Shown: positions 34,556 to 53,145, counted from the first letter of the stretch. The stretch is DNA of 64,000 nucleotides from Candidatus Zhuqueibacterota bacterium (GCA_034505495.1 JAPDQV010000003.1:44240-108239); one strand, 5' to 3'. Notes: a model not told the origin generated them from the letters alone. Numbers and translations are program-made.

Positions 34556-34558
34556 TAC

Positions 34559-35901: not shown

Positions 35902-36330
35902 TTGTATAGTATGAAAGATAAAAAATATATATATGCAATTTTGGCAGCGGCTCTTTTTTCGAGCGTATGCTTGATGGCCGGGGCGGTTATCGCCGATTTT
36001 CATGCTGAAAGCAGCCTGAACCGCGTTGACTTGAAATGGGTGGTAACGGCTGAAAGCCAGCTGAAGGGATACCGTATCATGCGCAGCTTGGACGGTGTCC
36101 AATTTCAAAAGCTTGCCTTCGTTCCTGCTGTGGGTGTGAATGGACGCGAATACACGTATCGATATTCAGACAATTCGGTATTCAAATCGGCCGGCAGGAC
36201 TTTTTATTACAAGTTGGAGCTCGTGAATTTAGATGACACCTATACCGCATACGAAAAAGTGATTGTCGTCGCGCCGCAAATCTCCTCCGCCCGACATACT
36301 TGGGGCAGCCTCAAAGCAATGTTTAGATAA
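35902..36330 (+). CDS. small secreted Fn3-like domain protein
   Basis: Signal peptide plus a single ~85-aa beta-rich domain resembling the pre-CTD domain of the T9SS cargo proteins in this window. Ends ...HTWGSLKAMFR. Sits in an AT-rich island. Confidence 0.55.
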   Translation: MYSMKDKKYIYAILAAALFSSVCLMAGAVIADFHAESSLNRVDLKWVVTAESQLKGYRIMRSLDGVQFQKLAFVPAVGVNGREYTYRYSDNSVFKSAGRTFYYKLELVNLDDTYTAYEKVIVVAPQISSARHTWGSLKAMFR

Positions 36331-36469
36331 GTCCCCCCGCAATTCTAATCCCAACACGAATACCGCCAGCACTCTATCAATTTCTCCCATTTATTCAGTG
36401 CGATTAGTCGATTTTGTATCTTTCCATTTTTATTTAAATTAATTTTTCGAGCATACTCATTTGATTCCA

Positions 36470-36607
36470 TCATCGTTTTAATTTTTCTTTTAGTTCTAAA
36501 AGCTGTTCCTCCAACTTGGTCAGTCGCCGTAGGATCGCCAAGAGGAAAATGAACAGTCCCGTCCAGATGGCCGAGTAGGCAAGAAAAAGATAACCCAACT
36601 TTGTCAT
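36470..36607 (-). CDS. ccmD: CcmD-like small membrane protein (heme exporter protein D)
   Basis: Unlisted 45-aa ORF MTKLGYLFLAYSAIWTGLFIFLLAILRRLTKLEEQLLELKEKLKR. Its ATG overlaps the ccmC stop (ATGA). It has a single TM helix with the Tyr/Ala/Trp pattern typical of CcmD. Confidence 0.6.
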   Translation of the reverse strand: MTKLGYLFLAYSAIWTGLFIFLLAILRRLTKLEEQLLELKEKLKR

Positions 36608-37287
36608 ATTTCGCCGTTTCTCCATTCTTTATCAAAAAGTTCAAGGTCCTTTTCGGCTCGAGAGATTTTATAGTTGATGTACAACAGGAGAATGAGCAGG
36701 AGAGTAAATCCGAAAAGCGCAATCATCAGGGTCGCAAGCATCGGAGCTTCCAGACCGCTGCCGCTTTTTCCGCCCAAGACCGGGGCAGGATGGAGGGTGC
36801 GCCACCATCGAATGGACATATAGACCAGAGGCACATCCAGAAAACCGATGATGCCAAAGACGGCGGCAAATCGCGCTCCCTTTTCGCCTGGTAAGGAGCT
36901 GCGCAGCATCAGATAAACGATAAAAATCAACCAGAGAACCAGTGAGGTGGTGAGGCGGGCGTCCCAAGTCCAAAAGACGTTCCACACCGGCTTTGCCCAT
37001 AAAGGACCGCTGACAAGCACCAAAGTGAGGAAAAACACCCCCACTTCGCCGGCACTGTAGGCCAGAACGTCCCAATGACTTTTGCCGGTACGAAGAAAGG
37101 CTATGCCACCGACAAACACGACGGCAAATGCCAAAAAGGAAACCCAGGCGGCAGGGACATGAAAGTAGAAAATTCTTTGGATTTCCCCCATGGTTCGTTC
37201 TGTCGGCGCGTACAAAAAGGCAGCATAAAGAGCTGCCGTCATCCCTATGTAGGTAAATGCCGCAAGTATCACCAGCGATTTCTTCAT
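36604..37287 (-). CDS. ccmC: heme exporter protein C
   Basis: CcmC/CcsA-family Trp-rich motif (VWNVFWTWDARLT), multi-TM, 227 aa. Confidence 0.85.
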   Translation of the reverse strand: MKKSLVILAAFTYIGMTAALYAAFLYAPTERTMGEIQRIFYFHVPAAWVSFLAFAVVFVGGIAFLRTGKSHWDVLAYSAGEVGVFFLTLVLVSGPLWAKPVWNVFWTWDARLTTSLVLWLIFIVYLMLRSSLPGEKGARFAAVFGIIGFLDVPLVYMSIRWWRTLHPAPVLGGKSGSGLEAPMLATLMIALFGFTLLLILLLYINYKISRAEKDLELFDKEWRNGEI

Positions 37288-37920
37288 TTACTCTTCCACA
37301 ATATGTTCATACAGTAAAAAGGACGCCGTAATAAAGATGATGTCCACGGCGGCCAATATTTTAATCCAAGAACCCGCTTCTTTCAAGCCCGCGTCGGTCA
37401 TCAATAGGGCTGATGCTTTTACTCCCGCAAGCAGAATCGGCACGATGACGGGAAAAAGCAGCAGCGGCAACATCACCTCCCGCGCTCGGCAGTGGGCGGC
37501 TATGGTCGAAAAAAGCGTGCCGACGGCAGAATAGCCGGCAACTCCAAGCAGGAGAACCGCAGCCAAGCCAAGCCGGTGTTCTCCCAGCGGCAGGTCGAAC
37601 AATACAACAAGGAGCGGGATTAGAATCAAAAGTTCGAAAGAAATAAAAATCATATTGCCGATCCATTTGGCTGGAAAAATGGCCGAACGGTCGATTGGGC
37701 AGAGAAGCAATCCCTGCATCATGGCGTTTTCATATTCGCGGTTGAACGAACGAGCCAGTCCGATGTTGCCGGAAAACACGAGCAGAATCCATAGAATACC
37801 CGAACCGGCGGTTTTCAGCTCTTCGGAGCCGGGCTCAAAAATAAAGCCAAAGATTACCGCAATTACCAGGGAAAAGAGCAGCATACCGTTCAGAATCTCT
37901 TTGCTGCGCAATTCCACCAA
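37288..37920 (-). CDS. ccmB: heme exporter protein B (ABC permease)
   Basis: 210 aa, six-TM CcmB-like permease. Lies between ccmA and ccmC. Confidence 0.8.
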   Translation of the reverse strand: MVELRSKEILNGMLLFSLVIAVIFGFIFEPGSEELKTAGSGILWILLVFSGNIGLARSFNREYENAMMQGLLLCPIDRSAIFPAKWIGNMIFISFELLILIPLLVVLFDLPLGEHRLGLAAVLLLGVAGYSAVGTLFSTIAAHCRAREVMLPLLLFPVIVPILLAGVKASALLMTDAGLKEAGSWIKILAAVDIIFITASFLLYEHIVEE

Positions 37921-37943
37921 GATATCTTTGTAAAGAATTGCGG

Positions 37944-38702
37944 CTATTTGAGCGATGGTTCGGATGGCAGCAGCATCTCCATTAATTCGGTTCTAAGCAG
38001 TCGATCGACCGGGCGATCGCAAACCAGTCTGCCGTGACGAAGGATCAGAACCCGTTGCGCCTTTTCGAGCGCATAGTCGATGTCGTGGAGGGTCAAGATG
38101 ACGGTTCGCTTTTCGTCGAGAAATTTATCCAACATCGATTTTAATTTTTCACGGGCATACACGTCGAGGCCGGTAAACGGTTCGTCGAGGAGCAGAATCT
38201 CCGGATCGTGCAACAAGGCGCGCGCCAGCGAGGCCCTTTGCGCCATGCCGCGGGAAAAGGTTCGGATCCGCTTTCGACGATGTTCCCAAAGCCCAACTTC
38301 TTCAAGCAGAGTCTCGGCCCGCTCCGGCGGGACTCCGAACATCCGCGCATAGAAACGGAGGTTTTCTTCTGCCGTAAGATCGTCATAAAGGTATGTGTGG
38401 TGACTCATGACCCCGACCGCACGCCTCGTTTCCGCTGCATGTCGGCGGACCGATAACCCTTTGATAAAGATTTCGCCTGATGACGGCCGCGCCAAACCTG
38501 CCAGCAGCCGGATGAGCGTTGTTTTTCCGGCGCCGTTGGCGCCCAAAACGGCAATGAATTCCCCTGTGTCGATGTGAAAAGAGACATCGCATAAAGCGCA
38601 CGCAGGTCCGAAAGACTTGCAGAGGTTGTCTGCTTTCACGATGCCGAATTTCGGTGTGCTTTGATCTGTTGTTGCGCACTTGTGCTGCATGCGAAAAGTC
38701 AT
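37944..38702 (-). CDS. ccmA: heme ABC exporter ATP-binding protein
   Basis: Walker A GANGAGKTT, ABC signature and Walker B. Synteny with ccmBC. Confidence 0.85.
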   Translation of the reverse strand: MTFRMQHKCATTDQSTPKFGIVKADNLCKSFGPACALCDVSFHIDTGEFIAVLGANGAGKTTLIRLLAGLARPSSGEIFIKGLSVRRHAAETRRAVGVMSHHTYLYDDLTAEENLRFYARMFGVPPERAETLLEEVGLWEHRRKRIRTFSRGMAQRASLARALLHDPEILLLDEPFTGLDVYAREKLKSMLDKFLDEKRTVILTLHDIDYALEKAQRVLILRHGRLVCDRPVDRLLRTELMEMLLPSEPSLK

Positions 38703-39646
38703 TTCCGTTTTAAACGCGGGAAGGCGGCAGTGTTGGTCACGCGACTGAAAAGAAAACCGCCCGTCAAGAGCAAAACGCCCAAACTCATGGTCAAATAAGG
38801 TGAGACGCCTTCGGCAGAATGCCCCTCTTTTTTAAACAACACTGATAACGTTTGACCGGCGGCAAACTCTTCGCCGTGCCTGCGGCGATACCTTTTCCCG
38901 CGAATCACGAAATCACCCAAGTCCTGCAGCGAAGAAGAAAGACTCCATTGCTCGGAATGAATGAAAAGATCGAGATTGCGCGTCGGTACCGGAAACTGCA
39001 AAGACAAATGGATTTCATTGCGTGTAACGGCTATGGTGTAACTGAAAGACAGAGTTCGATTCCCCGGCGGCAAGACTCCGCGAACGGAAAGCGAATCGCC
39101 TTCGATCGCTAAATCGAAATCGCGCGTGAGTGGGGAGAAATCTGAAAGACCGGACGGCAGGGCAATGCGCAGGAGCGGTTCGTCGGCTTTGGAGACGATC
39201 GTCAACTTGCCGCCGTTCTGCAGCACGCGCATCTCACGGAAGTGAAGACGGTCTTGAGCCTCTTCAACAATCAGGTGATGCATTGGGACTGATAGGGATG
39301 TCCGTTCAGTGGTTGTATCGAAAATCACAAGGGTGATTAGACGCGGAGCTTGGGCAAAGTTCAATTTATCAGAATAATACCTTATCCCGGAATAGACTGA
39401 GGAAAAATAGCAGTCTGAACCGCTGTCTGCCGATGTAAGGCTGAATGAAGCGCAGCCGTCGGTTCCGGCATTTTTTTGATCGATGAGAACAGGCTCTTGA
39501 GAGGACGTCATAAAGCATAAAAGTTCCACCCGCGCACCGGCGACTCTCAGACTGTCGCGGGAGCCGTTGACGACGCACACTTTAAAGTCCGAAGCTGCAG
39601 AAAGTGAAACGCCAACAAGCCAAAAGAGGATAAAGCGATTCATCAT
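38699..39646 (-). CDS. hypothetical secreted protein with C-terminal TM anchor, translationally coupled to ccmA
   Basis: Signal peptide and C-terminal hydrophobic helix plus basic tail. ATGA overlap with the ccmA start. Confidence 0.55.
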   Translation of the reverse strand: MMNRFILFWLVGVSLSAASDFKVCVVNGSRDSLRVAGARVELLCFMTSSQEPVLIDQKNAGTDGCASFSLTSADSGSDCYFSSVYSGIRYYSDKLNFAQAPRLITLVIFDTTTERTSLSVPMHHLIVEEAQDRLHFREMRVLQNGGKLTIVSKADEPLLRIALPSGLSDFSPLTRDFDLAIEGDSLSVRGVLPPGNRTLSFSYTIAVTRNEIHLSLQFPVPTRNLDLFIHSEQWSLSSSLQDLGDFVIRGKRYRRRHGEEFAAGQTLSVLFKKEGHSAEGVSPYLTMSLGVLLLTGGFLFSRVTNTAAFPRLKRK

Positions 39647-39811: not shown

Positions 39812-41851
39812 TTGAATAGGCGGAAAATTATTAAGGCTTTGAAAATGAACATCCTCATTGCCCATCCCAAACAGGCTTTTATTGATGCGGCCTCCGAGAG
39901 TTTCGGCTTACGGCGTGCCGGCCATCAGATTGCTTCGGCGCATTCTCTTGCCGATTTGGTCGACAAGATCGCCCAGAACAGTTATCATCTGCTGCTCATC
40001 GACGGCGAATTGATCGATAACGGTGCGGCTGCTTTTTTCGGCGTGCTTTCTGCGCTTAAGGATGAAGCCGACGTCATCGTTACGGTCGATGAGAAACATG
40101 CAGCATTACAGCAGGAACTGAAAGAATTGGGAGGATTGCAGATCGTCGTCAAAACCGACGGTTATTTGACGGCACTGAACCGCGCCATCCGCCGCATTCT
40201 TGAGAAGGCAGCTCAAGCGGCTGTAAACTCAACTCTCCAGTCTGAACCGGCGGGAACCCAATCTGCCTCCGAAGAGCGTTCATTTGTTTGCGATCGGCGC
40301 GGCCGGTTTCTATCCGTTGCCGAGGGCATTGAAAGGCTGACCGGCTATGCGGCGGAGGAACTTGCTCATCTCTCATTGACGGATCTCATGCCCGCCGGCC
40401 AGGAGGCGTCTTTTTATCGTCGTCTTTTCGATGAGACGGGAGGCGCAGGCGAGCGCACTTTGACGATCGATTTGCGGGACAAGTTCGGCAAAGTTCACTC
40501 GGTCGAACTCATCGTCAGGCTGATCAGCGTCGAGGGTCGTCCTGATCAGTTCATCGGCTTTAGGGGTACTATGCGGGAGGTCGAACCTTCTGTGGTTTCC
40601 AGAGAGCCTGCCCGTATCGATCAAATGGAAATGATCGCTCAATTCATTGAATTGGTCCACGACGGCTATTCTCAGCCGCTCAGTCTCTTTTTGCGGCGTA
40701 TTGTGGAGGTCACCTGTCAGCTGTTTCGCTTCCGCCGTTCCACTTTGGCGCTCCTCGATACACGTTCGCAGTCTTTTATCAAGCAGGCGTTGGTGGGCTA
40801 TAGTGAAGCGGAGAGACAGCAGGTTGAACAGCGGGTTCCCGAAGTGCCTCGCGACGTCATTGACCGCATTTTCGAGGGACGTTATCGGATCAAAGTCATC
40901 TATCACCAGCGGCGAGAGAGGGATACGGTCGGTGATGAGGCTGCTCTATTGCCGGACCGTCGCAGTCAGAGGCGCCCGGCCGTCAATCAATGGCATAAGC
41001 GCGACCTGGTTCTGCTCAACCTCAAAGACCACAGCGGCGTGACGTTCGGCTATATCTCTCTCGATGAACCGCAGCCGGATATGCAGCCGAATCGCAATCT
41101 TTTCTATAATCTCGAAATCTTTTCACGCCTGATCAGCATGGCCATCGAGAACTATTACCGCTTCAGCACACTGGCCAAGCGCAACCGCCGATTGCAGCAG
41201 ATTTTGGCCAACAGCAGCATCTTTAAGCTGCAGCCCAGTCTAACTGATGTCCTCAACGAGACCAGTTGGGCAGCCAAGAACACTTTGGAGTTCAATTTGA
41301 TCTGCATTGCGCTCATCAATAAAAAGTCGCAAAAGCTGGAATTAAAGTCCGTTGCCTGCGACGATGCAGTCAAACAGGCGCAGCTATTGGAGCTCGCCTA
41401 TGAAGTGCCTGCTTTCAGCCGTCTCCTTAAAGATGAGTATCAGCTCGGCAAGTCATATTACATCAAAAAGGAAGAAGCGATTCTGCGGCATTTGAAGCAG
41501 ATCTATTACGGCGCCGAGCTGAGCCTGAATCGAGCCGCCGGCTGGAACCCTTGGCAGTTTATCGTTGTTCCAATTCGTGGAAGAGAAGAAAAGATCATCG
41601 GCTTCCTTATGGCCGACGATCCGGTTTCTCATCGTGCTGTACCGGATGAGACGATTGGTCTCTTGGAGATCATTGCCGGCCAAGTAGCCGTGGCAATCGA
41701 GAATCGGATGCTTTACGTCGAAGTCAGAGATCGAAGGATTCCGATCTCGGTAAGCGATACACCGGCTATTGTGGCCGAAACTCATACAAAAGAATTTGAA
41801 GAGGAAGCGCCGAAGGGCATCAAGCGGCTGGTCGACCGATTCTTGCGATAA
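39812..41851 (+). CDS. receiver-like domain / PAS / GAF signalling protein with no output domain
   Basis: N-terminal CheY-like fold with an Asp in LLLIDGEL but lacking the acidic DD pair. Then a PAS domain and two GAF-like regions. Confidence 0.65.
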   Translation: MNRRKIIKALKMNILIAHPKQAFIDAASESFGLRRAGHQIASAHSLADLVDKIAQNSYHLLLIDGELIDNGAAAFFGVLSALKDEADVIVTVDEKHAALQQELKELGGLQIVVKTDGYLTALNRAIRRILEKAAQAAVNSTLQSEPAGTQSASEERSFVCDRRGRFLSVAEGIERLTGYAAEELAHLSLTDLMPAGQEASFYRRLFDETGGAGERTLTIDLRDKFGKVHSVELIVRLISVEGRPDQFIGFRGTMREVEPSVVSREPARIDQMEMIAQFIELVHDGYSQPLSLFLRRIVEVTCQLFRFRRSTLALLDTRSQSFIKQALVGYSEAERQQVEQRVPEVPRDVIDRIFEGRYRIKVIYHQRRERDTVGDEAALLPDRRSQRRPAVNQWHKRDLVLLNLKDHSGVTFGYISLDEPQPDMQPNRNLFYNLEIFSRLISMAIENYYRFSTLAKRNRRLQQILANSSIFKLQPSLTDVLNETSWAAKNTLEFNLICIALINKKSQKLELKSVACDDAVKQAQLLELAYEVPAFSRLLKDEYQLGKSYYIKKEEAILRHLKQIYYGAELSLNRAAGWNPWQFIVVPIRGREEKIIGFLMADDPVSHRAVPDETIGLLEIIAGQVAVAIENRMLYVEVRDRRIPISVSDTPAIVAETHTKEFEEEAPKGIKRLVDRFLR

Positions 41852-41915: not shown

Positions 41916-42890
41916 ATGAAGCGAAGAGATTTTCTAAAATCCTTGTCGGCAGCCGGGCTGGTCGGTTTCTCGTCGTCCGTACCGGCGGAAGCGGTCGGAG
42001 AATCGCCGCAGATGAGAGGCCGCGTGGTGATGGTTCAGCGCCCCGGCATCGTCGATGCGCAGGAGCGGGCGGATGCGGTCAAGCTTGCGAACATGCTCGA
42101 TGCCGCGGTCGAAAGGCTGTTCGAAGAAAAAGCGGACAAGATTTGGCGAACGCTTTTTTCACCGCGCGATGTGGTCGGATTAAAGGTGAACTGTCTGGCG
42201 GGACGAGGCCTTTCGACCCGAACCGAACTCACCCAGGCGGTCGTCGATCGACTGACCAAAGCCGGAGTGCCGCATGAGCAGATCATCATTTGGGACCGCC
42301 GCGACCGCGATCTCCAACGCGCCGGCTATACGCTCAATTCGGGCAAGGGTGTTCAATGCTGCGGCAATGACCGCGCCGGATTTACCGAGCACGTGTACGA
42401 GTTTGGGGCCGCCGCCAGTCAATTATCGTTGACGCTTATGCGCTGCACGGCCGTCATCAATCTGCCGATTCTCAAGGATCACGGCATCGTGGGCATGAGC
42501 GGCGCCCTAAAGAATTTTTTCGGTGCGGTTAATAATCCGAACAAATATCATATGAACTGCGGCGATCCGTTTGTTGCGGACGTGGCTTGTCTGCCGCCGA
42601 TCCGCCAAAAGGTGCGTTTGACGATTTGCGACGCCTTGACGGCGCAGTACGAAGGCGGACCGCCGTTTATGCCGGAATATACTTGGCGCCTGGAGAGCCT
42701 TTTGGTTGCCGTCGATATGGCGGCGCTCGACCGCATCGCCTGGCAAATGATCGATGAGAAGCGCCGCCAAGTCGGACTGCCGACGCTCGAAAAGGCGGGC
42801 AGAAAGCCGACCTATATTCTGACGGCAGGCGATGCGGCGCACCGCCTGGGCGAGACCGACCCGATGAAAATTGAGTGGATTCGTATTTAA
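41916..42890 (+). CDS. Tat-signal DUF362 domain protein
   Basis: Twin-arginine motif MKRRDFLKSLSAAGLVGF...AEA, then a DUF362-like core. Confidence 0.65.
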   Translation: MKRRDFLKSLSAAGLVGFSSSVPAEAVGESPQMRGRVVMVQRPGIVDAQERADAVKLANMLDAAVERLFEEKADKIWRTLFSPRDVVGLKVNCLAGRGLSTRTELTQAVVDRLTKAGVPHEQIIIWDRRDRDLQRAGYTLNSGKGVQCCGNDRAGFTEHVYEFGAAASQLSLTLMRCTAVINLPILKDHGIVGMSGALKNFFGAVNNPNKYHMNCGDPFVADVACLPPIRQKVRLTICDALTAQYEGGPPFMPEYTWRLESLLVAVDMAALDRIAWQMIDEKRRQVGLPTLEKAGRKPTYILTAGDAAHRLGETDPMKIEWIRI

Positions 42891-42893
42891 AAA

Positions 42894-43997
42894 ATGAAAA
42901 TTAGTCGCCGACAATTTCTTTTTACAGCCGCCGCTTCATTGGGCGCAGCAGGAATCGCCGCTGCGGCGGGCAAGAACGACGTCGACAAGCTGCACGAAGC
43001 GCGGTACTATAAAAAGCTGCCGCAGCGTAAAATAGAATGCGAACTCTGCCCGCGGCGATGCGTCATAGACGACATGGAGCGAGGCTACTGCGGTGTGCGC
43101 GAAAATCACGGCGGCGTCTATTACTCACTCGTCTACGGCCAAGTCTGCAGCGCCAATATCGACCCGATCGAAAAAAAGCCGCTGTTTCATTTTCTGCCTG
43201 GTGCCAAAGCCTTTTCGATTGCAACCGTCGGTTGTAACGTTATGTGCAAGTTCTGTCAGAATTGGGAAATCTCGCAGGCCAACGTCGATCAGGTCAAATC
43301 GATGGAACTTTTGCCCGCGCAGACGGCTGCGATTGCCAAGGACCGTCGCTGTGAAGTTATTGCCTACACCTATACCGAACCGGTCGTTTTCACGGAATAC
43401 ATGTATGATTGCGCCGTGGAAGGCCGAAAGGCCGGGGTGCGCAGCGTGATGATATCGAACGGCTACATAAATGCGCAGCCGATGAAGGATTTGTGCAACG
43501 TACTGGACGCCGTCAAGATTGATTTGAAGGCGTTTAACGAACGGTTTTATAGAGAGCTTGTGGCGGGCGAACTCAAGCCGGTGTTGGATACTCTCGTGCT
43601 GCTGAAAAAGCAAAAAATGTGGACCGAGATCGTTTACTTGGTGATCCCCGGACAAAATGATGATCCCGGAGAACTGCGCGAGATGTGCACCTGGATCAAG
43701 AACGACTTGGGGCCGGAGACGCCGGTACACTTTAGCCGGTTTCACCCCCAATATCGATTGACCAACATACCGGCTACGCCTTTGGAAGTATTGCGCAAAG
43801 CGCGGCGCATCGGTTTGGAGTGCGGTCTCTATTATGTCTACACCGGCAATGTGCCGGGGGATGAGGGCGAAAGCACCTATTGCCCGAACTGCGGTGCCGT
43901 AGTCATCAAGCGGTTCGGTTTTTCGGTACTGAGTCGCGCCCTCAAAGATGGAAGATGCGTTGCCTGCGGCAGGGCGATTGCAGGCGTGTGGAGCTGA
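42894..43997 (+). CDS. AmmeMemoRadiSam system radical SAM enzyme, with Tat-like N-terminus
   Basis: CNVMCKFC (CxxxCxxC) radical SAM motif. PFL-activase-like family. Adjacent to the Memo/AMMECR1 gene. N-terminus SRRQFLFTAAASLGAAGIAAAAG. Confidence 0.8.
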   Translation: MKISRRQFLFTAAASLGAAGIAAAAGKNDVDKLHEARYYKKLPQRKIECELCPRRCVIDDMERGYCGVRENHGGVYYSLVYGQVCSANIDPIEKKPLFHFLPGAKAFSIATVGCNVMCKFCQNWEISQANVDQVKSMELLPAQTAAIAKDRRCEVIAYTYTEPVVFTEYMYDCAVEGRKAGVRSVMISNGYINAQPMKDLCNVLDAVKIDLKAFNERFYRELVAGELKPVLDTLVLLKKQKMWTEIVYLVIPGQNDDPGELREMCTWIKNDLGPETPVHFSRFHPQYRLTNIPATPLEVLRKARRIGLECGLYYVYTGNVPGDEGESTYCPNCGAVVIKRFGFSVLSRALKDGRCVACGRAIAGVWS

Positions 43998-44015
43998 AGA
44001 AAATCGCTTTAGGAA

Positions 44016-45518
44016 TTGTTTATGAAGAGAGGCTGCAACTTTTTTCTTTGTATTTTCGCCATGTGGAGCGGAGCCATGTTGAACGAAAGAGCAGAAGCAC
44101 AAGTACGGCCGCCGATGGTAGCGGGTCAATTCTATCCGGCCGACGCCCAACAGCTGTCGCGAGACGTTAAGCGCTACTTGGACAAGGCGGAAGACCTTCG
44201 TCTGCCGCCGATCATTGGTCTGCTTGTTCCGCATGCGGGGTACATTTATTCCGGCGCTACGGCTGCCGCCGGTTACAAGCAGGCGGCTCGACAGAAAGTC
44301 GAGTTGGCGGTGGTCATTTCTCCCACGCATCGCGAGTATTTCGAGGGAGTGACAATCTACCCAGGAGACGCCTACGAAACCCCGTTAGGAAAAATGGCCA
44401 TTGACAAACAAACGGCGGCCAAATTGGTTGCATCGCATTCAGCCGTGCATTTCAGTGAACGGGGACATCGGGCCGAGCACGCCTTGGAAGTGCAGTTGCC
44501 GTTTCTTCAGACTCTGTTTCCGCAGGCCAAGCTTTTGCCTTTGGTCGTCGGCCCTGATTGCGACTGGAAGACCTGCGAATCCGTCGGAAGAGCCCTTGCC
44601 GACGTCGTGCGCGGCAGGCAGGCTTTGATCGTCGCCAGTTCGGATCTCTATCATGGAGAGTCTTACTCGGATTGCGTCAAAATCAGCAAGGAGACGCTGG
44701 ATGCGGTGACGCGCCTGCAGCCTGAAGCTTTGTTCCGCGGGCTGCAGCGGGATACCTATCAGGCCTGCGGCGGCCTGCCCGCGGTGATTATGGAAACGGC
44801 GGCCATGGCCTTGGGTGCCGATGAGGCAAAACTGATCGCCCAGACCAATTCGAATGATGTGACCGGAACCCGCGGCGGCTATGTCGTGGGGTACGGCGCG
44901 GTTGCGCTCTATAAAAAAGCTTCGCAAGAGAATCGATCGGATAAAGTCGAATACAAGCCGTTACCGTTGGCCGAACAGAAATATTTGCTCAAGTTGGCCC
45001 GTTGGGCGATCGCGGAAAGATTGAAAGTCAAATCCGTCGAAGCACCGGCGAAACTCGCGAGTCCAATACTGCAAGAAAAGCGCGGAGTATTTGTAACGCT
45101 CACTCAAAAAGGTCACCTGCGCGGCTGTATCGGCCGCCATGAGGCGGATGTTCCTCTGGAAGAGTTGGTGCCGCAGATGGCTCGCGCCGCCGCCTTTGAA
45201 GATCCGCGTTTTCCGCCGCTGCGTCCCGAGGAGCTGGCTATTACGGACATCAAGATTTCGGTCTATTTGACCAACGTCTACCGAATTCACGATCTGTCCG
45301 AGTTCAAAATGGGCGAGCATGGGATCATCTTGAAAAAAGGATTTCATGCCGCTACCTATTTGCCGGAAGTGCCGCTCGAAGCCGGGTGGAAGACGGTGGA
45401 GGAAGAGATGGCCAGCCTCTGTCTCAAAGCCGGCCTGCCGCCGGATGCCTGGAAGAGCGGAGCCGAATTCTGGGTTTACAAAACACAGGTGTTCGACGAG
45501 TCGATTCTAAAGAAATGA
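44016..45518 (+). CDS. Memo-like (AmmeMemoRadiSam protein B) fused to AMMECR1 (protein A), with N-terminal signal peptide
   Basis: N-terminal half is MEMO1 family (QFYPAD..., LLVPHAGYIYSG). C-terminal half is AMMECR1 (RGCIGRHEA...). Preceded by a hydrophobic signal-like segment. Confidence 0.8.
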   Translation: MFMKRGCNFFLCIFAMWSGAMLNERAEAQVRPPMVAGQFYPADAQQLSRDVKRYLDKAEDLRLPPIIGLLVPHAGYIYSGATAAAGYKQAARQKVELAVVISPTHREYFEGVTIYPGDAYETPLGKMAIDKQTAAKLVASHSAVHFSERGHRAEHALEVQLPFLQTLFPQAKLLPLVVGPDCDWKTCESVGRALADVVRGRQALIVASSDLYHGESYSDCVKISKETLDAVTRLQPEALFRGLQRDTYQACGGLPAVIMETAAMALGADEAKLIAQTNSNDVTGTRGGYVVGYGAVALYKKASQENRSDKVEYKPLPLAEQKYLLKLARWAIAERLKVKSVEAPAKLASPILQEKRGVFVTLTQKGHLRGCIGRHEADVPLEELVPQMARAAAFEDPRFPPLRPEELAITDIKISVYLTNVYRIHDLSEFKMGEHGIILKKGFHAATYLPEVPLEAGWKTVEEEMASLCLKAGLPPDAWKSGAEFWVYKTQVFDESILKK

Positions 45519-45526
45519 AAAAGAAT

Positions 45527-45562
45527 GCGGGCAAAGGCAAAAGCTTTTGCCCGTTTTTGTTT
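45527..45562 (+). terminator. rho-independent terminator
   Basis: cgggcaaa...tttgcccg stem containing an internal palindrome (gcaaaagcttttgc), followed by a T-run. Confidence 0.7.
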
Positions 45563-45662: not shown

Positions 45663-47852
45663 TTGTGTACTTTAACGAAACAGGTCATGTTTTTTTCCGT
45701 ATTCTGGGCCGGTCATTACACAGATCGGAGCAGCTTTGAGATACAGCAGCGGATTTTCCGCATGAAATATTTCAGTCAACTTTCGTTACTTCTTCCTTTT
45801 GCGTTTTTTTGCGCCGCTGCGGCCTTGTATTTGGCAGGCGACAGAACCGTCGCTTTGACTTGGGTCGGCTTACGGCACGAGGTCTTTGTCATCACCGCAG
45901 TGATCCTCTCCCTGCCGTTGATTTACAGACAAAAATGGGCATCCGATCGGAACGTTTTGCGCGGCATTCGCCATCTCTTTTTTCTGATAGTCATGACCGG
46001 CGGCATTTTGTTCCTTTCGCGCCAAAGATTCAGCCTGCTGCAGCAAAAGATCATCAGCCAGGATTGGTTTCGGCTCAATTGGAGCGATTCCGTCTTTGTC
46101 GTTTTATGGGCATTTTTTTCATTGATTTTTATTTTAATAGCCCTCGGCACCCTCCGCAACCTGATTTACGTTAAAAGGCGGCGAAACACCGCCCGCCATT
46201 TTGCCTGGCTGATGGTTTTGATGTTGCTTTATGCCTTTCTCGGATTGTATAAAAGCAGAACGCAAACCGAATTCGTCGAGAACGAGTTTCTCAAATACTT
46301 TGACAATATCGTTCTTTTTCTGCTCATCAACTTTATCGTCATCAATTCCTTTCGGGTCGGCTGGATCAATTATCTGAATAAAAAGCAAAAACTGGCCTGC
46401 TTTTTCGGCGGTTTTTTACTCATTCCTTTGCAGATCTCCTTCGTCAACCAATTTAAAGAGGTCAGCCCGGTTTACAACTTTAGCCCGTTTCTTGAGCGGT
46501 TTGTGGAAATGGGGATGATCTTTATTGCGGTTTATCTGAGTTTTGCCTTTCTGGCGCTTCTTGCGCACCTGCCGACCGCCAGGCTGTACGACCGAAAGCT
46601 GCAGCAGATCCGTTCTCTGCATGACCTAAGTCGAGTATTGAGCTCAGAGTTTGATTGGGACCGATTGGTGCAGACGATCGTTCGGCTGGCCGCTCAAGTG
46701 ACCGAGGCACAGTATAGCTGGCTCGAGCTGTACGTTAACGGCCGTTTGGCTCTGGCCTCGTCTTGGAATTTGAGTCTGAATGAAGAACGCCGCCGGCAGG
46801 CAGATGAGCAGGATCGTCTGTACGAAGCGCTGCGCAGTGAGCGGGAGTCCCTATTGCTCAACGAAGCCGGCAAAGATCCGCTCCTTCGCACGTTGCGCCG
46901 CTGGAAAAGCGGTCTCGGCTCTCTGGTGGCCGCGCCGTTGATCACCTCGGATCAGGTTTTGGGTTACCTCTTTGCCGCAAAACAGGAGGAATTTTCCTTC
47001 GAGCAGGACGATGCGGAGATGATGCGCGCCTTTGCAGACCAAGCGGCGGCGGCGATCATGAACGCCAAACTGGTCGAACAGTCGCTGGTAAAGGAAAGGC
47101 TCGAACAAGAGCTGCGCATTGCTCATGAGGCGCAGATGAAGCTGCTGCCTAAAACTATGCCTGTTCTAAACGGCATGGCATTTGATGCAGTCTGCATTAC
47201 AGCCAACGAAGTGGGCGGCGATTACTATGATTTTTTCGACATCGGCGAGGAATTAACGGCGGTAGTGGTCGGCGATGTTTCCGGCAAGGGCCCTTCAGCA
47301 GCTTTTTACATGGCCGAGGTGAAGGGGATTATGGAGGCGCTGGCGGCTGAACGGCTTTCTCCCGAAGAGATGCTGGCCATCGTTAATGAAACGGTTTATC
47401 GCAACTTTGACCGCAACACCTTTATCAGCCTGATCTACGGGTTGGTGGATGCCCGACGCCGCCGCTTTACCTTTTGCCGCGCCGGACATTGCCCGGTCTA
47501 CCATTATCGCGCTGCGGAGGCGGCGGTTCGTCGCTTGGAACCGCGCGGCATAGGTCTCGGCCTTACCTCCAGCCCTCTGTTTCAGAACACCCTGGAAACG
47601 ATGATCGTGGATATTCTGCCGCAGGATTGTTTTCTCCTCTTCACCGACGGCGTCATCGAAGCGAGAAATCCTGCCGGTGAAGAGTTCGGCGAAGAGCGGC
47701 TGGCTGAAGCCTTTCAAGAGGCTAATGAAACCCATGCAAACGAAATCAAGAAGCATCTTCTTCATCGCATTTATGCATTCTTTGACGGCGCCGCGGCGTT
47801 TGATGATCTGACATTCGTGCTCTTCAAGGCGGTTGCCGAGACCGAAAGCTAA
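45663..47852 (+). CDS. membrane sensor (~8 TM) GAF / PP2C (SpoIIE-type) serine phosphatase
   Basis: Long hydrophobic N-terminus, GAF region and C-terminal PP2C (GDVSGKGPSAAFYMAEVKG...). The true start may lie downstream (e.g. MKYFSQ). Confidence 0.75.
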   Translation: MCTLTKQVMFFSVFWAGHYTDRSSFEIQQRIFRMKYFSQLSLLLPFAFFCAAAALYLAGDRTVALTWVGLRHEVFVITAVILSLPLIYRQKWASDRNVLRGIRHLFFLIVMTGGILFLSRQRFSLLQQKIISQDWFRLNWSDSVFVVLWAFFSLIFILIALGTLRNLIYVKRRRNTARHFAWLMVLMLLYAFLGLYKSRTQTEFVENEFLKYFDNIVLFLLINFIVINSFRVGWINYLNKKQKLACFFGGFLLIPLQISFVNQFKEVSPVYNFSPFLERFVEMGMIFIAVYLSFAFLALLAHLPTARLYDRKLQQIRSLHDLSRVLSSEFDWDRLVQTIVRLAAQVTEAQYSWLELYVNGRLALASSWNLSLNEERRRQADEQDRLYEALRSERESLLLNEAGKDPLLRTLRRWKSGLGSLVAAPLITSDQVLGYLFAAKQEEFSFEQDDAEMMRAFADQAAAAIMNAKLVEQSLVKERLEQELRIAHEAQMKLLPKTMPVLNGMAFDAVCITANEVGGDYYDFFDIGEELTAVVVGDVSGKGPSAAFYMAEVKGIMEALAAERLSPEEMLAIVNETVYRNFDRNTFISLIYGLVDARRRRFTFCRAGHCPVYHYRAAEAAVRRLEPRGIGLGLTSSPLFQNTLETMIVDILPQDCFLLFTDGVIEARNPAGEEFGEERLAEAFQEANETHANEIKKHLLHRIYAFFDGAAAFDDLTFVLFKAVAETES

Positions 47853-47878
47853 ATGCTGCAGTCATTCGGAGGAAAACA

Positions 47879-48262
47879 ATGGAGACCTTTACAATTCAAC
47901 GACAAGACAAAGACGAATTATCTATTCTCAATCTTTCCGGTTTTTTGGACGCGCATACGGCTCCGGAACTGGAAAAGCAGCTCGATCAGCTCATCAATGA
48001 AGGCCGCAGCAAGATCATCGTAAATTTCGCGAATCTCAATTACATCAGCAGCGCCGGCCTCGGCGTATTCATGGGCAAAATCGAAACGGTCCGCAGTATG
48101 AACGGCGACATCAAGATGTGCAGAATGACGCCAAAAATTTTCCGAGTCTTTGATCTACTCGGATTCCCGACATTATACGACATTGTCCAGGAAGAGGAAG
48201 AGGCGGTGCAGCTTTTCGCGTCGAAAGAGCGCAGTTCGCGGAGAGCCGATGATAGAGCTTGA
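47879..48262 (+). CDS. STAS domain anti-sigma factor antagonist (SpoIIAA/RsbV-like)
   Basis: 127 aa STAS fold with a phosphorylatable Ser in the NYISSAGLG context. Confidence 0.85.
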   Translation: METFTIQRQDKDELSILNLSGFLDAHTAPELEKQLDQLINEGRSKIIVNFANLNYISSAGLGVFMGKIETVRSMNGDIKMCRMTPKIFRVFDLLGFPTLYDIVQEEEEAVQLFASKERSSRRADDRA

Positions 48263-48306
48263 GATCGCAGGCTTTTGCGGCCAATACCTACTGAGGAACG
48301 GATGTT

Positions 48307-48783
48307 ATGCCGAAAAATGAAATGACTTATTGCTTGCGGATACCCAGCCGCACGGACAACCTCGAGCTGATCCGCGAATTTGTCGCTCGTGTGGCCCGAA
48401 AGGTCGGCTTTGACGAGGACGATGTGGGCAAGATCGAGCTGGCCTGCGACGAGGCTTGTTCGAACGTCATTAAACACGCTTACGAGCAAAAGAACGGCAG
48501 TCAAAGCCTGGATGTTGTCATTCGCGTCGATTTGAAAAAACTGACCCTCATCGTCACCGACCATGGCAAAGGATTCGATCCTTCCAAGGTCATTGTTCCG
48601 GACATGAAGGAATATCTGGCGCAGCTCAAAGTCGGCGGACTGGGCATCTATTTAATGCGCACGCTGATGGATGAAGTCGATTACGACATCAAACCCGGCG
48701 TACGCAATCAGGTCAAGATGGTCAAGTATCTTATCGATAAAAAGAGCTCCAAGGTGGTAAAGGCCGACAGGAATGAGGAATGA
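48307..48783 (+). CDS. anti-sigma regulatory factor / Ser-Thr kinase (RsbW/SpoIIAB-like HATPase)
   Basis: GHKL ATPase N-box ELACDEACSNVIKHAY and G-boxes. Confidence 0.85.
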   Translation: MPKNEMTYCLRIPSRTDNLELIREFVARVARKVGFDEDDVGKIELACDEACSNVIKHAYEQKNGSQSLDVVIRVDLKKLTLIVTDHGKGFDPSKVIVPDMKEYLAQLKVGGLGIYLMRTLMDEVDYDIKPGVRNQVKMVKYLIDKKSSKVVKADRNEE

Positions 48784-50534
48784 TGCGCGCTCGATCGTCG
48801 GCTCGAAAACTCGATCTGCGCAGCGTGGAGCTGCGGTCGTTGATCGAACTCAGTCAGGTGCTCAACGCTTCGCTGGACGCCGATGCAGTGCTCAATACTT
48901 GCCTTCTCACGCCGATGGGACGAATGCTCATCAGCCGCGGCATGGCTTTGACTGCGGACGAAAACGGAAGTCTCGGCGTGCGCATCCTCAAAGGACTGCC
49001 CGCCTCTCTTGCCCAACAACGCTTTACATTTGAGTATGCATTTCGCACGCCGACCCGACTTGCTGAATTGCCGGACGATGTCTGCCGCTACAAGCCGTTT
49101 TTGCAAAGTCTCGGCATTGAGTTGGTGGTGCCGATGTGCTCGCCGAGCCGAATGGTCGGCGCCTTGTGCTTCGGCGGCAAAATGACCGGCAAACCGTTTT
49201 CCCCTCGCGAACTCGAATTTCTCAATTCGTTTTCCAACATTGCCGCCACGGCGCTGGAAAATGCCTTAATGTTCCAAAGCCTAATAACCGTCAACCGGCG
49301 CCTGGACCGCAAGGTGCATGAACTTAACACTTTGTTCGAGGTCGGTAAGGAACTGAACACGGCATTGGATCGGGAGAGGATTCTTGCCATTCTGCAGCAC
49401 ACGGTTATGGGACAAATGACGGTCAATAAATTGATCATGATCGAGGTAGGAGAAGATCAAACGATCGAATACCCCATCCTCAAGTGGCCGGAGCGAACCG
49501 AGTTGGACCGTATTCTGGCCGAGAAAGAGTTGATTTTGAGCTTGTCGGAATTGAACGAAGCGCGTCTTTTGACGGCTGAGGAACCGGCACATCGACTTTT
49601 GTTCGAGGCCGGCGTTCGTGCGGTCGTACCGATGCGGCTGCAGGAAGAAACACGGGCACTATTGCTGCTCGGCAAAAGGCTTTCGCGGCAAGAGTACGCG
49701 CAGGAGGATCTGGATTTCTTGTCTACACTCGGCAATCGCGTCATGGTATCGTTGGAAAACGTCAGGCTCTTCCAAGAGGCGCTGGAAAAGCAGCGGCTGG
49801 AAGAGGAGATGGCGATTGCCGAATCGATTCAGCAGCGGCTGCTGCCGCGCACTTTTCCCTCGCTGCACGGCATCGAGATTTACGGTCTCAATCAGCCCTC
49901 GCGAATGGTCGGCGGCGACTATTTCGACTGCATTCCGCTGAGCGACGGCCGCGTCGTTTTGGCCGTGGGAGACGTTTCCGGCAAAGGCCTCGGCGCGGCG
50001 CTGCTCATGTCGAACCTCCATGCCGGTTTGCATACGCTGCTGCAGTCCGGTTTGCCCATGAACGAGATGATCAAGCGGCTGAACGATCTGATCTATCGCC
50101 ACACCGATTTCGACAAGTTCATTACTTTTTTCTACGCCGAACTTGATCCGCAAAGCCGTCTGCTTCGCTATGTCAACGCCGGGCACAACCCGCCGATGCT
50201 TTGTCGCAGCGACGGCAGCATCGGACTGCTTACGGAAGGCGGCCTAATTCTCGGCATGCTGGAGGATGTCGATTATATGATCGGTCAAGTCGAACTGCGC
50301 AGCGGCGATCTGCTGGCGGCCTACACCGACGGGGTGACCGATGCGCGCAACAGCGCGGATGAACTCTTTGACGAGGATCGATTAGCGGAGCTGGTCAGGA
50401 CAGCGGCCCGCAGCGATCTGCGCGCCGACGAGTTGTGCACGCAAATCGTCAAGGCCGTCGAAGACTTTAGCGGCGATCTCCCCCAGGCAGACGACATCAC
50501 CCTGTTAATTGTAAAGGTCCAAGAAAAGACATGA
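48780..50534 (+). CDS. tandem GAF / PP2C (RsbU/SpoIIE-type) phosphatase
   Basis: Two GAF-like regions, then PP2C (GGDYFD..., GDVSGKGLGAALLM). Confidence 0.8.
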   Translation: MMRARSSARKLDLRSVELRSLIELSQVLNASLDADAVLNTCLLTPMGRMLISRGMALTADENGSLGVRILKGLPASLAQQRFTFEYAFRTPTRLAELPDDVCRYKPFLQSLGIELVVPMCSPSRMVGALCFGGKMTGKPFSPRELEFLNSFSNIAATALENALMFQSLITVNRRLDRKVHELNTLFEVGKELNTALDRERILAILQHTVMGQMTVNKLIMIEVGEDQTIEYPILKWPERTELDRILAEKELILSLSELNEARLLTAEEPAHRLLFEAGVRAVVPMRLQEETRALLLLGKRLSRQEYAQEDLDFLSTLGNRVMVSLENVRLFQEALEKQRLEEEMAIAESIQQRLLPRTFPSLHGIEIYGLNQPSRMVGGDYFDCIPLSDGRVVLAVGDVSGKGLGAALLMSNLHAGLHTLLQSGLPMNEMIKRLNDLIYRHTDFDKFITFFYAELDPQSRLLRYVNAGHNPPMLCRSDGSIGLLTEGGLILGMLEDVDYMIGQVELRSGDLLAAYTDGVTDARNSADELFDEDRLAELVRTAARSDLRADELCTQIVKAVEDFSGDLPQADDITLLIVKVQEKT

Positions 50535-53139: not shown

Positions 53140-53145
53140 CCGGCA

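Follow-up and report, generated by a model that had tools for sequence, protein, structure and literature searches.

Can a radical SAM enzyme work outside the cytoplasm? Radical SAM (rSAM) enzymes are treated as strictly cytoplasmic, as they depend on SAM, on an electron donor of low potential and on Fe-S assembly, and neither a SAM pool nor a low-potential reductant is known to exist in the periplasm. The question is raised by an operon in the window, i.e., the whole stretch of 64,000 nucleotides analysed here, in which an rSAM enzyme and both of its neighbors begin with export-type leaders.

Operon Organization and Family Membership

Positions 41916–45518 of the plus strand carry three co-directional, adjoining ORFs, encoding a DUF362 protein, the AmmeMemoRadiSam rSAM enzyme and a Memo::AMMECR1 fusion. 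The genes are separated by gaps of 3 nt (DUF362/rSAM) and 18 nt (rSAM/fusion) and share one terminator, which begins 9 nt past the stop codon of the fusion gene.

41916..42890, + strand: DUF362 protein, 324 aa, LarA-like fold (PF04015, E 7e-18)
42894..43997, + strand: AmmeMemoRadiSam radical SAM enzyme, 367 aa (TIGR04337, 386.9 bits vs. cutoff 220)
43233..43256, + strand: CX3CX2C radical SAM cluster motif (C114, C118, C121), invariant in two alignments
44016..45518, + strand: Memo::AMMECR1 fusion, 500 aa counted from TTG 44016 (TIGR04336 and TIGR04335)
45527..45554, + strand: intrinsic terminator closing the operon, with 7 GC pairs in its 12-bp stem and a T-run behind it

The fusion matches TIGR04336 (Memo-like protein B) over aa 31–297 with 245.1 bits (cutoff 26) and TIGR04335 (AMMECR1-like protein A) over aa 323–493 with 157.3 bits (cutoff 99) in one polypeptide, and the two domains are fused in all of its closest 120 homologues (120/120). 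The rSAM enzyme also matches PF04055 (E 2e-19), keeps all the catalytic motifs, and has two extra conserved Cys4 groups (C49/52/56/66 and C330/333/355/358) that are common to leaderless relatives. With three profiles above their curated cutoffs, the genes together and CX3CX2C present, the operon meets AmmeMemoRadiSam membership. The initial annotation had claimed a complete operon of this kind, with the N-termini as read here and with Memo and AMMECR1 fused, and both claims held. The cassette of the same three components recurs on long contigs (loci L001, L002, and L004).

Canonical cytoplasmic AmmeMemoRadiSam (TIGR04337, TIGR04336, and TIGR04335) resembles the KSB1 operon in the profiles, gene adjacency, CX3CX2C and both Cys4 groups, and no biochemical function has been assigned to either version. 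The KSB1 operon differs in having export leaders on all parts, Memo and AMMECR1 in fused form, DUF362 as a fourth, branch-specific component, and an rSAM core that belongs to a separate deep clade. Leaderless, cytoplasmic proteins are typical of the family, although they do not formally define it.

Among other rSAM enzymes, the pyruvate formate-lyase activating enzyme (PFL-AE) provides the nearest solved fold (3cb8, TM 0.82 on the target) and the closest non-self NCBIfam matches; the KSB1 enzyme differs by its extra N- and C-terminal Cys4 modules. Membership of the glycyl-radical activases was rejected, as the scores against TIGR02493 (60.9 vs. 231.75 bits) and TIGR02494 (43.5 vs. 174.35 bits) are below cutoff and no glycyl-radical enzyme gene is found in the operon or nearby.

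Export-Type Leaders on All Three Proteins

The leaders are listed below; the slash marks the end of each.

41916..41993, + strand: Tat signal peptide of DUF362, MKRRDFLKSLSAAGLVGFSSSVPAEA/V (TIGR01409, 19.0 bits vs. cutoff 16.7)
42894..42971, + strand: Tat signal peptide of the rSAM enzyme, MKISRRQFLFTAAASLGAAGIAAAAG/K (PF10399, 24.3 bits vs. cutoff 24)
44016..44099, + strand: Sec-type (SPI) signal peptide of the fusion, M(FM)KRGCNFFLCIFAMWSGAMLNERAEA/Q, a hydrophobic leader conserved as a class in homologues

The Tat motifs, KRRDFLK in DUF362 and SRRQFLF in the rSAM enzyme, are followed by Ala/Gly-rich h-regions and then by AEA and AAA sites, respectively, and the Sec-type leader of the fusion ends with AEA/Q. 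The rSAM leader scores 13.0 bits against TIGR01409, below the cutoff of 16.7, and reaches the Rieske Tat-signal model PF10399; PF10518 stays under cutoff for the DUF362 and rSAM leaders alike. The family profiles begin at residue 36 of the rSAM enzyme and residue 31 of Memo, and therefore these leaders are extra to the domains. All three leaders fall outside the family profiles. In the AlphaFold models, residues 1–30 of the rSAM enzyme (pLDDT 87.7) form a detached helix of low confidence, and residues 1–32 of DUF362 (pLDDT 89.7) are likewise detached and of low confidence. A crude Tat screen flagged 4 of the 53 genes in the window, two of which are the adjoining DUF362 and rSAM genes. Neither tatA nor tatC is found within the 64-kb window, the rest of the genome being outside the search. 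All three proteins thus bear export-type leaders extra to their domains, as the initial annotation had proposed (Tat on DUF362 and the rSAM enzyme, Sec-like on the fusion), with the reservation on the rSAM leader given above. Actual translocation and periplasmic catalysis are inferred, without experimental localisation.

The S/T-R-R-x-F-L-K leader is shared with Tat-exported Fe-S/cofactor enzymes, such as hydrogenase small subunits, DmsA/DmsB and the Rieske protein. Further likenesses are cofactor loading ahead of transport, which is inferred for the rSAM enzyme, partners that at times lack a signal (hitch-hikers), and a Cys just past the Tat motif, seen in many orthologues. The difference is that electrons suffice for the known enzymes, whereas an rSAM enzyme also needs the nucleotide co-substrate SAM. 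The literature searched describes no rSAM enzyme as a Tat substrate and reports no periplasmic, exported or Tat-targeted one; the principal study of the Memo-AMMECR1-rSAM context (Burroughs et al. 2019, JBC) was not covered, so that an earlier mention of secreted versions is not excluded. In the HXS system paper, the exported item is the rSAM-matured effector, not the rSAM enzyme itself.

Start Codons

The leaders could be annotation artefacts, with start codons called too far upstream. In support of this, internal ATGs are present in the DUF362 gene (codon 33) and the fusion gene (codon 21, with GGAG ahead of it), and one gene caller chose the codon-21-type start in a 98%-identical fusion homologue (P0121). 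Against it, in-frame starts are missing from codon 16 of the rSAM gene up to the conserved core, which leaves no usable internal start, and a Met able to yield a leaderless product is absent in most leader-bearing orthologues (present in 3/89 for DUF362, 5/118 for rSAM, and 27/109 for the fusion). Orthologues keep the leaders in frame, with RR invariant, and codon 33 is Leu, not Met, in a 94%-identical DUF362 orthologue (P0241). The internal ATG of the fusion gene is disfavoured because the leader is conserved in orthologues; its start is probably ATG 44022, not TTG 44016. Mis-called starts, which would have refuted the initial annotation, are rejected on the missing internal start in rSAM and the missing internal Met in most orthologues, and there remains hardly any room for the artefact reading.

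Conservation and Spread of the Leaders

R5 and R6 of the rSAM enzyme are invariant in 25 orthologues, the remaining leader being highly variable in sequence and length, and R3, R4, and F6 of DUF362 are invariant in 41 orthologues. The RR motif is found in 107/120 close rSAM homologues (about 90%) and in roughly 100/120 DUF362 homologues. It also occurs on the rSAM enzymes of 78/84 fetched loci, with at least 15 phyla represented, and among diverse representatives of the AmmeMemoRadiSam family its share is about 25%. Most of the 120 fusion homologues have a hydrophobic leader of 25–45 aa ahead of a conserved [IV]RxPAVAGxFYP, with a lipobox Cys in many of them. In a contingency of 164 loci, the leaders co-vary among rSAM, DUF362 and Memo::AMMECR1; for example, the Memo genes adjoining leader-type rSAM genes encode a leader in 41/44 cases. 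There are three exceptions, L097, L112, and L134, in which a leaderless rSAM enzyme is combined with a TM-anchored Memo::AMMECR1, and therefore the same-side logic is not universal.

In a tree of the core domain, the leader trait requires 3 Fitch steps vs. 31.6 ± 2.1 with shuffled labels, and 79/135 diverse rSAM cores, more than half, are leaderless. Leader-bearing rSAM enzymes are thus a deep, widespread clade across many phyla, and a one-off oddity of the KSB1 genome is rejected. The earlier claim of a highly unusual exported rSAM enzyme is to be corrected accordingly: the trait belongs to a widespread clade rather than to one operon, and export itself is inferred.

Or the leaders may not be export signals at all: the proteins would be cytoplasmic, perhaps attached to the membrane from inside, and RR would be vestigial or a chaperone-binding remnant as in NarG. 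Remnant Tat motifs have precedent (NarG/NarJ), SAM and reductants reside in the cytoplasm, and the rSAM leader misses the TIGR01409 cutoff. Remnant motifs are, however, degenerate, whereas RR is invariant here with the full S/T-R-R-x-F-L-K consensus. Classical Sec signals and lipoboxes on the partner proteins, co-variation of three independent leaders across phyla, and a leader trait that defines a clade with flavinylated extracytosolic-domain fusions inside it also speak against this reading, which we consider very improbable.

A sub-variant of the export reading, which remains possible, is that the rSAM Tat leader stays uncleaved as a Rieske-type N-terminal anchor on the periplasmic side of the cytoplasmic membrane, near a lipid or membrane-protein substrate. 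In favor of this, the leader matches the Rieske Fe-S Tat-signal family best of all the curated models (PF10399, 24.3 bits), the h-region is Ala/Gly-rich and the AxA sites are weak, plain hydrophobic anchors occur in some relatives (L058 and L063), and a multi-pass membrane partner occurs in half of the related loci. On the other hand, the c-region AAAAG/K still allows signal peptidase cleavage, and the variability of the leader outside RR is like that of cleaved signals.

The DUF362 Partner

A DUF362 gene neighbors the rSAM gene at 57 of 97 leader-type loci and at none of 62 leaderless ones (57/97 vs. 0/62, p=5e-17). These counts support DUF362 as a partner specific to the leader-type branch, for which export is inferred, and bear out the linkage noted in the initial annotation. 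In 30/41 loci DUF362 bears a Tat signal itself, and in about 12 loci a leaderless DUF362 lies beside a Tat-rSAM enzyme.

DUF362 and LarA belong to the same Pfam clan, CL0471 (PMC11770544), and in a Foldseek search of the DUF362 model the top 19 PDB matches are all LarA-family NPN enzymes (E 1.6e-5 to 1.3e-2). Thus, clan and structural matches link DUF362 to the LarA superfamily, the nickel-pincer nucleotide 2-hydroxyacid racemases/epimerases. The differences are that DUF362 spans only part of LarA, that TM scores are low (0.39–0.49), and that profile and sequence searches against PDB found no sequence-level LarA alignment. Invariant H189, K199, and H212 of DUF362 resemble the LarA NPN/Ni/catalytic residues merely in spacing, with no alignment behind the resemblance.

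The initial annotation had further suggested that DUF362 might supply electrons to the rSAM enzyme. This part gained no support: DUF362 is the only domain found in the protein, with no Fe-S or flavin domain, and its fold is LarA-like, so that a role as Fe-S or flavin electron donor is unsupported.

Electron-Transfer Context and the Site of Catalysis

Sister rSAM enzymes in the leader clade are fused to or adjoin FMN_bind, Fer4_5/NapH-like and DsbD_2 (DsbD-like) modules, and in the core-domain tree the electron-transfer fusions nest inside the Tat clade. Architectures among relatives include anchor+FMN_bind+rSAM with no TM between, signal+propeller+rSAM, and signal+CBM11+rSAM. The FMN_bind fusions retain an intact ApbE flavinylation motif without exception (5/5), and NapH-like polyferredoxin neighbors occur at 6 leader-type loci vs. 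0 leaderless ones. In these modules the sister enzymes resemble the flavinylation-associated extracytosolic electron-transfer systems (NapH-like, DsbD-like) of Meheust et al. 2021 (PMC8238504), who make no mention of radical SAM, DUF362 or AMMECR1. The KSB1 operon differs in lacking FMN_bind, NapH and DsbD modules, and neither a SAM carrier nor an electron donor is encoded in it.

There are more equivocal cases. In NosR/NapH-type fusions, a crude hydropathy count is ambiguous between 6 and 7 TMs ahead of the soluble domain, and on such counts their rSAM domain may possibly be cytoplasmic. The fusions P0387 and P0380 have Sec-like anchors without RR, and are therefore hard to square with export of an Fe-S enzyme. 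A spermidine-synthase-like (SpeE-like) multi-pass membrane protein, found in half of the related loci, is also of ambiguous topology by crude hydropathy.

Radical chemistry might instead precede export: the rSAM enzyme would mature DUF362 or its bound cofactor in the cytoplasm, and the complex would then leave via Tat, with the rSAM subunit as a signal-bearing carrier or structural subunit and no need for SAM outside. This reading solves the SAM and reductant problem and suits the PFL-AE-like core, of activase or maturase type. Leaderless DUF362 beside Tat-rSAM suggests a complex formed ahead of export, and cofactor-loaded heterodimers are well known to hitch-hike through Tat (PMC10924467). 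Against it, the canonical partner Memo::AMMECR1 would leave separately, unfolded, by Sec or as a lipoprotein, and therefore at least the rSAM–Memo::AMMECR1 interaction must be outside. Moreover, the wiring of sister enzymes to extracytosolic electron-transfer modules would be pointless if catalysis stopped in the cytoplasm, and DUF362 has its own Tat signal at most of the loci counted above (30/41). We regard the pre-export reading as unlikely.

Proposed Model and Implications

On balance we lean, without great confidence, toward an extracytoplasmic version of AmmeMemoRadiSam, of which export, SAM supply and substrate are inferred. In this model, the rSAM enzyme would receive its [4Fe-4S] cluster(s) and fold in the cytoplasm and then pass the membrane via Tat, and the LarA-fold DUF362 would likewise fold first and be exported by Tat. 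Where DUF362 lacks a leader, as in some lineages, it would probably leave bound to the rSAM enzyme, and therefore a complex is implied. Memo::AMMECR1 would leave unfolded by Sec; it would be soluble in the case of the KSB1 operon and a lipoprotein in that of many relatives. The exported components may jointly modify a cell-envelope substrate in an anoxic periplasm; among Pfam families, AMMECR1 is the strongest marker of anaerobes (PMC13386939). In sister lineages, electrons would be passed to the rSAM domain by flavinylated FMN_bind, NapH-like or DsbD-like modules, and for the KSB1 operon they would come from a donor not locally encoded. SAM may be carried out in bound form and then regenerated or used once, or may be delivered by a membrane partner, e.g., the spermidine-synthase-like protein.

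Export is favored by the extra leaders, which recur as a class in hundreds of orthologues, invariant RR, co-variation, coherence in the tree, electron-transfer fusions, and detached leaders in the models. Points against it are the lack of localisation data, the sub-threshold TIGR01409 score of the rSAM leader, the absence of tatA/tatC from the window, and the lack of a known SAM pool. In a bolder reading, which could as well be wrong as right, these would be true extracytoplasmic rSAM enzymes, the first known, performing periplasmic SAM-dependent radical chemistry on an envelope substrate in anaerobes, with electrons from flavinylated or NapH/DsbD-type relays and SAM either bound and regenerated or supplied by a membrane partner.

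Memo and AMMECR1 are conserved from bacteria to humans and tied to human disease, without a biochemical function. If the bolder reading is true, it would give radical SAM chemistry a new compartment and indicate a cell-envelope role (lipid, isoprenoid or glycan) for the two domains; an envelope-located version narrows the candidate substrates and adds LarA-fold DUF362 as a branch-specific fourth component. An exported enzyme with its partners in a coherent branch would challenge the strictly cytoplasmic view of rSAM, and the wiring of relatives to extracytosolic electron-transfer modules raises the questions of whether SAM or its recycling exists outside and what reduces the cluster. The leader-bearing branch, its export being inferred, appears large, old and not described in the literature searched, and probably merits its own family model apart from TIGR04337.

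Operon organization and N-terminal leaders

The operon at window 41916-45518 is inferred to belong to a four-component branch of the AmmeMemoRadiSam system that acts outside the cytoplasm. It consists of three co-directional genes with intergenic gaps of 3 and 18 nt, followed by a terminator.

Features of the operon
Within 41916-45518, + strand: DUF362 protein, 324 aa (PF04015, E 7e-18)
Within 41916-45518, + strand: radical SAM (rSAM) enzyme, 367 aa (TIGR04337 "AmmeMemoRadiSam system radical SAM enzyme", 386.9 bits, cutoff 220)
Within 41916-45518, + strand: Memo::AMMECR1 fusion, 500 aa (TIGR04336, 245 bits, aa 31-297; TIGR04335, 157 bits, aa 323-493)
45527-45554, + strand: strong intrinsic terminator (12-bp stem and T-run) after the last stop codon

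TIGR04336 and TIGR04335 represent Memo-like protein B and AMMECR1-like protein A, respectively, joined here in a single polypeptide. The family is already known, and NCBI names the genes as AmmeMemoRadiSam components. The initial annotation had reported export leaders on all three products: this observation held, and the quoted N-terminal sequences are identical to the translations. The leaders are also extra to the conserved domains, whose profiles match only from residue 36 onward in the rSAM enzyme and from residue 31 in the fusion. Its reading as an exported system is supported, with export and periplasmic catalysis both remaining inferences. Uniqueness of the trait to one operon failed, as the leaders are widespread in a large clade.

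The DUF362 N-terminus scores above the cutoff of the TIGR01409 Tat (twin-arginine) model (19.0 vs 16.7) without matching the PF10399 Rieske Tat signal (cutoff 24), and the rSAM N-terminus scores below the former (13.0) and above the latter (24.3). In the AlphaFold models (pLDDT 89.7 for DUF362 and 87.7 for rSAM), residues 1-32 and 1-30, respectively, form a detached, low-confidence N-terminus. The fusion leader matches no profile; it is composed of KR, a 16-residue hydrophobic core and AEA followed by Q, a classic Sec/SPI layout. A crude Tat screen flags 4 of the 53 window genes, one of them falsely, and the neighbouring DUF362 and rSAM genes are two of the four. Probably, the leaders direct all three proteins to the outer face of the cytoplasmic membrane, an inference made without localisation data.

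Mis-called starts, with downstream ATGs giving leaderless products, would have refuted this reading; the possibility was checked and not borne out. Because in-frame starts are absent from the rSAM gene between codon 16 and the conserved core, its leader must be translated. Internal ATGs are present in the DUF362 gene (codon 33) and the fusion gene (codon 21), and for a fusion homologue with 98% identity one gene caller chose the internal start. A Met able to give a leaderless product is found in 3/89 DUF362, 5/118 rSAM and 27/109 fusion sequences of leader-bearing orthologues, and codon 33 is Leu in a 94%-identical DUF362 orthologue. The rarity of internal Met and this Leu, together with the start-codon gap of the rSAM gene, rule out mis-called starts as the source of the leaders. 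For the fusion, the most probable start is ATG 44022, not TTG 44016.

Distribution of the leaders

Of the 120 nearest rSAM homologues (60-79% identity), 107 open with S/T-R-R-x-F-[LI]-K; alignment of 25 sequences shows R5 and R6 to be invariant within a leader otherwise variable in sequence and length. The same RR motif is found in about 100 of 120 DUF362 homologues (with no variation at R3, R4 and F6 across 41 sequences), and most of 120 fusion homologues carry a hydrophobic leader of 25-45 aa before the conserved [IV]RxPAVAGxFYP, many with a lipobox Cys. Many orthologous rSAM leaders (homologues P0002-P0120; e.g., P0005, P0009, P0012, P0053) carry a single Cys or a pair in the h-region immediately after RRxFxK, as in GCALAGGC and ACAGCLL; these residues may be connected with chaperone binding, by analogy to hydrogenase small subunits, or with lipidation. 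The window's rSAM leader has no Cys.

The DUF362 - rSAM - Memo::AMMECR1 cassette is seen again on long contigs. In one of them, a 6.5-Mb genome resembling KSB1 (the candidate division to which an identical public protein assigns the window), an additional stand-alone leaderless AMMECR1 gene of 190 aa directly follows the leader-bearing fusion (L001:8681-9253). The best 80 loci of a species-representative genome scan are from KSB1, Latescibacterota, Scalindua and other Planctomycetota, Acidobacteriota, Aminicenantes, Zixibacteria, Verrucomicrobiota, Desulfobacterota, Omnitrophota, Poribacteria, Anaerolineales and others. The RR motif is on the rSAM enzyme in 78/84 loci, the remainder being truncated or having KR or plain hydrophobic variants.

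An exhaustive search of 1.84 billion cluster representatives gave 8176 relatives, and the top 150 (38-57% identity) were examined, 135 of which have near-full-length cores.

Classes of the 135 rSAM cores
Leaderless (330-350 aa): 79
Tat-type leader: 37
Long N-terminal fusion: 13

When the cores are placed on a neighbour-joining tree, 3 parsimony steps suffice for the Tat trait, compared with 31.6 +/- 2.1 with shuffled labels; the trait thus marks one old, coherent branch and not a set of scattered acquisitions. Both the leader-type and the leaderless branch have the full set of catalytic features (CX3CX2C, the TYTEP motif and two accessory Cys4 groups), and the nearest solved fold to the AlphaFold model of the rSAM enzyme is PFL-AE. 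The exported branch therefore looks fully competent as rSAM enzymes, which is likely on these motifs and the modelled fold but remains inferred.

Co-variation of the components

Eighty further metagenome loci were fetched with leaderless representatives as query, and all 164 loci were classified with home-built HMMs.

Genes within 4.5 kb of the rSAM gene (leader-type vs leaderless loci; Fisher p)
DUF362: 57/97 vs 0/62; 5e-17
Memo: 44/97 vs 8/62; 1.4e-5
Spermidine-synthase-like membrane protein: 49/97 vs 5/62; 1.5e-8

Furthermore, the Memo::AMMECR1 fusion adjoining a leader-type rSAM gene bears a leader in 41/44 cases. Such a joint leader switch in three separately encoded proteins is what a move of the whole system to another compartment would predict, and we consider this inferred explanation likely. 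The leaders could instead be vestigial motifs; this is improbable, as vestigial motifs hardly explain joint switching in three independently encoded proteins. There are exceptions to the shared compartment: L097, L112 and L134 pair a truly leaderless rSAM enzyme (starting MKIQCELCP) with a Memo::AMMECR1 fusion having a single N-terminal TM anchor, and a SpeE-like membrane protein is also present.

Further neighbours are confined to leader-type loci (L038:2427-3404, L021:1515-2534, L010:5695-7332). A DUF6599 membrane-anchored protein is found in 8 leader-type and 0 leaderless loci, AI-2E family transporters are found in 3 and 0, respectively, and the rSAM gene of Scalindua is directly followed downstream by genes for two DUF1538 membrane proteins, along with PII-like and CBS proteins.

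Role of DUF362

The initial annotation had proposed DUF362 as a linked partner, possibly the electron donor. The linkage held, since DUF362 is a branch-specific neighbour (57/97 vs 0/62). The role of reductant supplier is unsupported, as the domain search found no Fe-S or flavin domain in the protein. All of the 19 best PDB fold matches to its model are LarA-family nickel-pincer-nucleotide racemases/epimerases (E down to 1.6e-5, TM 0.39-0.49); profile and sequence searches yielded no residue-level alignment to LarA. Pfam places DUF362 in clan CL0471, to which the LarA N-terminal domain also belongs (PMC11770544), and DUF362 is known in fusions with extracellular CBM9 and dockerin modules (PMC5742341). 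Probably, DUF362 is a cofactor- or substrate-binding partner rather than an electron donor, although this is inferred without binding data; loading with a cofactor before export would also account for its Tat signal.

In about a dozen loci, mostly of Aminicenantes and Zixibacteria (L015, L021, L022, L024, L031, L035, L038, L039, L043, L046, L067, L084), the DUF362 gene just upstream of an RR-leader rSAM gene is itself leaderless, its product beginning at the first beta-strand (MSKVVVVK...). This is the pattern of Tat hitch-hiker pairs, and a DUF362-rSAM complex is therefore inferred.

Possible electron relays and envelope fusions

Within the Tat-type branch, the rSAM core is fused to envelope modules.

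Fusion architectures of homologous rSAM proteins
DsbD_2 + FMN_bind + Fer4_5 (NapH/NosR-like) + rSAM: P0370
FMN_bind + Fer4_5 + rSAM: P0371, P0374
DsbD_2 + rSAM: P0372, P0375
Single N-terminal anchor + FMN_bind + rSAM, no further TM: P0387, P0395
Signal + beta-propeller (Reg_prop/PorZ-like) + rSAM, no further TM: P0364 (919 aa)
Signal + CBM11(-like carbohydrate-binding) + rSAM, no further TM: P0380 (681 aa)

Extracytosolic electron-transfer systems are known to be built from FMN_bind, NapH-like and DsbD modules (PMC8238504); that survey of flavinylated systems mentions neither radical SAM enzymes nor these rSAM fusions. The ApbE flavinylation motif D-x-[IV]-[ST]-G-A-T is kept in 5/5 FMN_bind domains of the fusions, and a stand-alone NapH-like polyferredoxin adjoins 6 leader-type and 0 leaderless loci. 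These architectures show habitual coupling of the branch to trans-membrane electron relays; the electron flow itself is inferred. The single-anchor FMN_bind fusions would place the rSAM domain on the side of the flavinylated, normally extracytosolic domain, again by inference from architecture. TM counts of the NosR-like fusions (6-7) are hydropathy-based and do not resolve the side of the rSAM domain. A few fusion anchors have no RR, which is awkward if an Fe-S enzyme is to be exported. No DsbD, FMN_bind or NapH-like module is encoded in the KSB1 operon. The propeller and CBM11 architectures hint at a glycan or other envelope substrate.

Supply of SAM

Nothing in the operon accounts for SAM outside the cytoplasm. 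SAM might be exported bound to the enzyme and then regenerated each cycle or spent once, or a membrane partner might deliver it outside. The main rival is that the radical step is finished before export. Two points speak against it and make it seem unlikely: Memo::AMMECR1 would be exported separately, by Sec, and the rSAM core has electron-relay fusions. As for the preferred reading, the complete mechanism, with SAM-dependent catalysis in the periplasm, is an inference that could as well be wrong as right.

A tentative SAM/dcSAM-handling partner is the spermidine-synthase-like membrane protein, in which 12-14 predicted TMs flank a domain of ~310 aa with a SAM/decarboxy-SAM-binding fold (PF01564; weak match to NF037959 "fused MFS/spermidine synthase"); its topology is unresolved. 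It is found in about half of the related loci (L009-L084, L090-L162; e.g., L039:5635-7767, L023:5666-8020, L022:5505-7751) and is absent from KSB1 loci and from the window. Among Pfam families, AMMECR1 is reported to mark anaerobes most strongly (present in 3.4% of aerobes and 50.7% of anaerobes; PMC13386939), a bias that fits survival of an oxygen-labile system in the periplasm.

In the full-text literature searched, no periplasmic, exported or Tat-targeted radical SAM enzyme is described and no link of AMMECR1 or Memo to export was found. The main gene-context paper on Memo-AMMECR1-rSAM (Burroughs et al., 2019) reportedly ties the system to nucleotide-base and isoprenoid modification, and secreted versions in it are not excluded.

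Genomic surroundings

Regulators flank the operon. A PAS/GAF protein lies upstream; downstream are five SpoIIE/PP2C phosphatases, of which some also contain GAF, HAMP or receiver domains, together with a STAS protein and a kinase of the HATPase_c_2 anti-sigma type. The related loci L001 and L004 likewise retain the PAS/GAF and SpoIIE flanks.

Neighbouring features of the window
32001-38000: GC falls from ~0.54 to 0.41-0.49 (minimum 0.414 at 34001-36000), possibly an acquired segment
36604-38702, - strand: three genes CcmA/B/C-like by N-terminal sequence (ABC heme-export or cytochrome c maturation set)
38699-39646: 315-aa signal-bearing protein without Pfam match, following the CcmA/B/C-like set; set and protein both diverge from the regulator upstream of the operon
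39812-41851 and 45663-55152: dense partner-switching regulatory cluster
51700-53139: second, unrelated radical SAM gene (B12-binding domain + Radical_SAM, 479 aa) among the phosphatase genes
55149-57713: 854-aa TPR protein

The TPR protein begins MRFPMSNGTRRTFVLLAALFLTCGT, which resembles a Tat-type motif with a lipobox-like Cys after it, and is possibly another Tat substrate.
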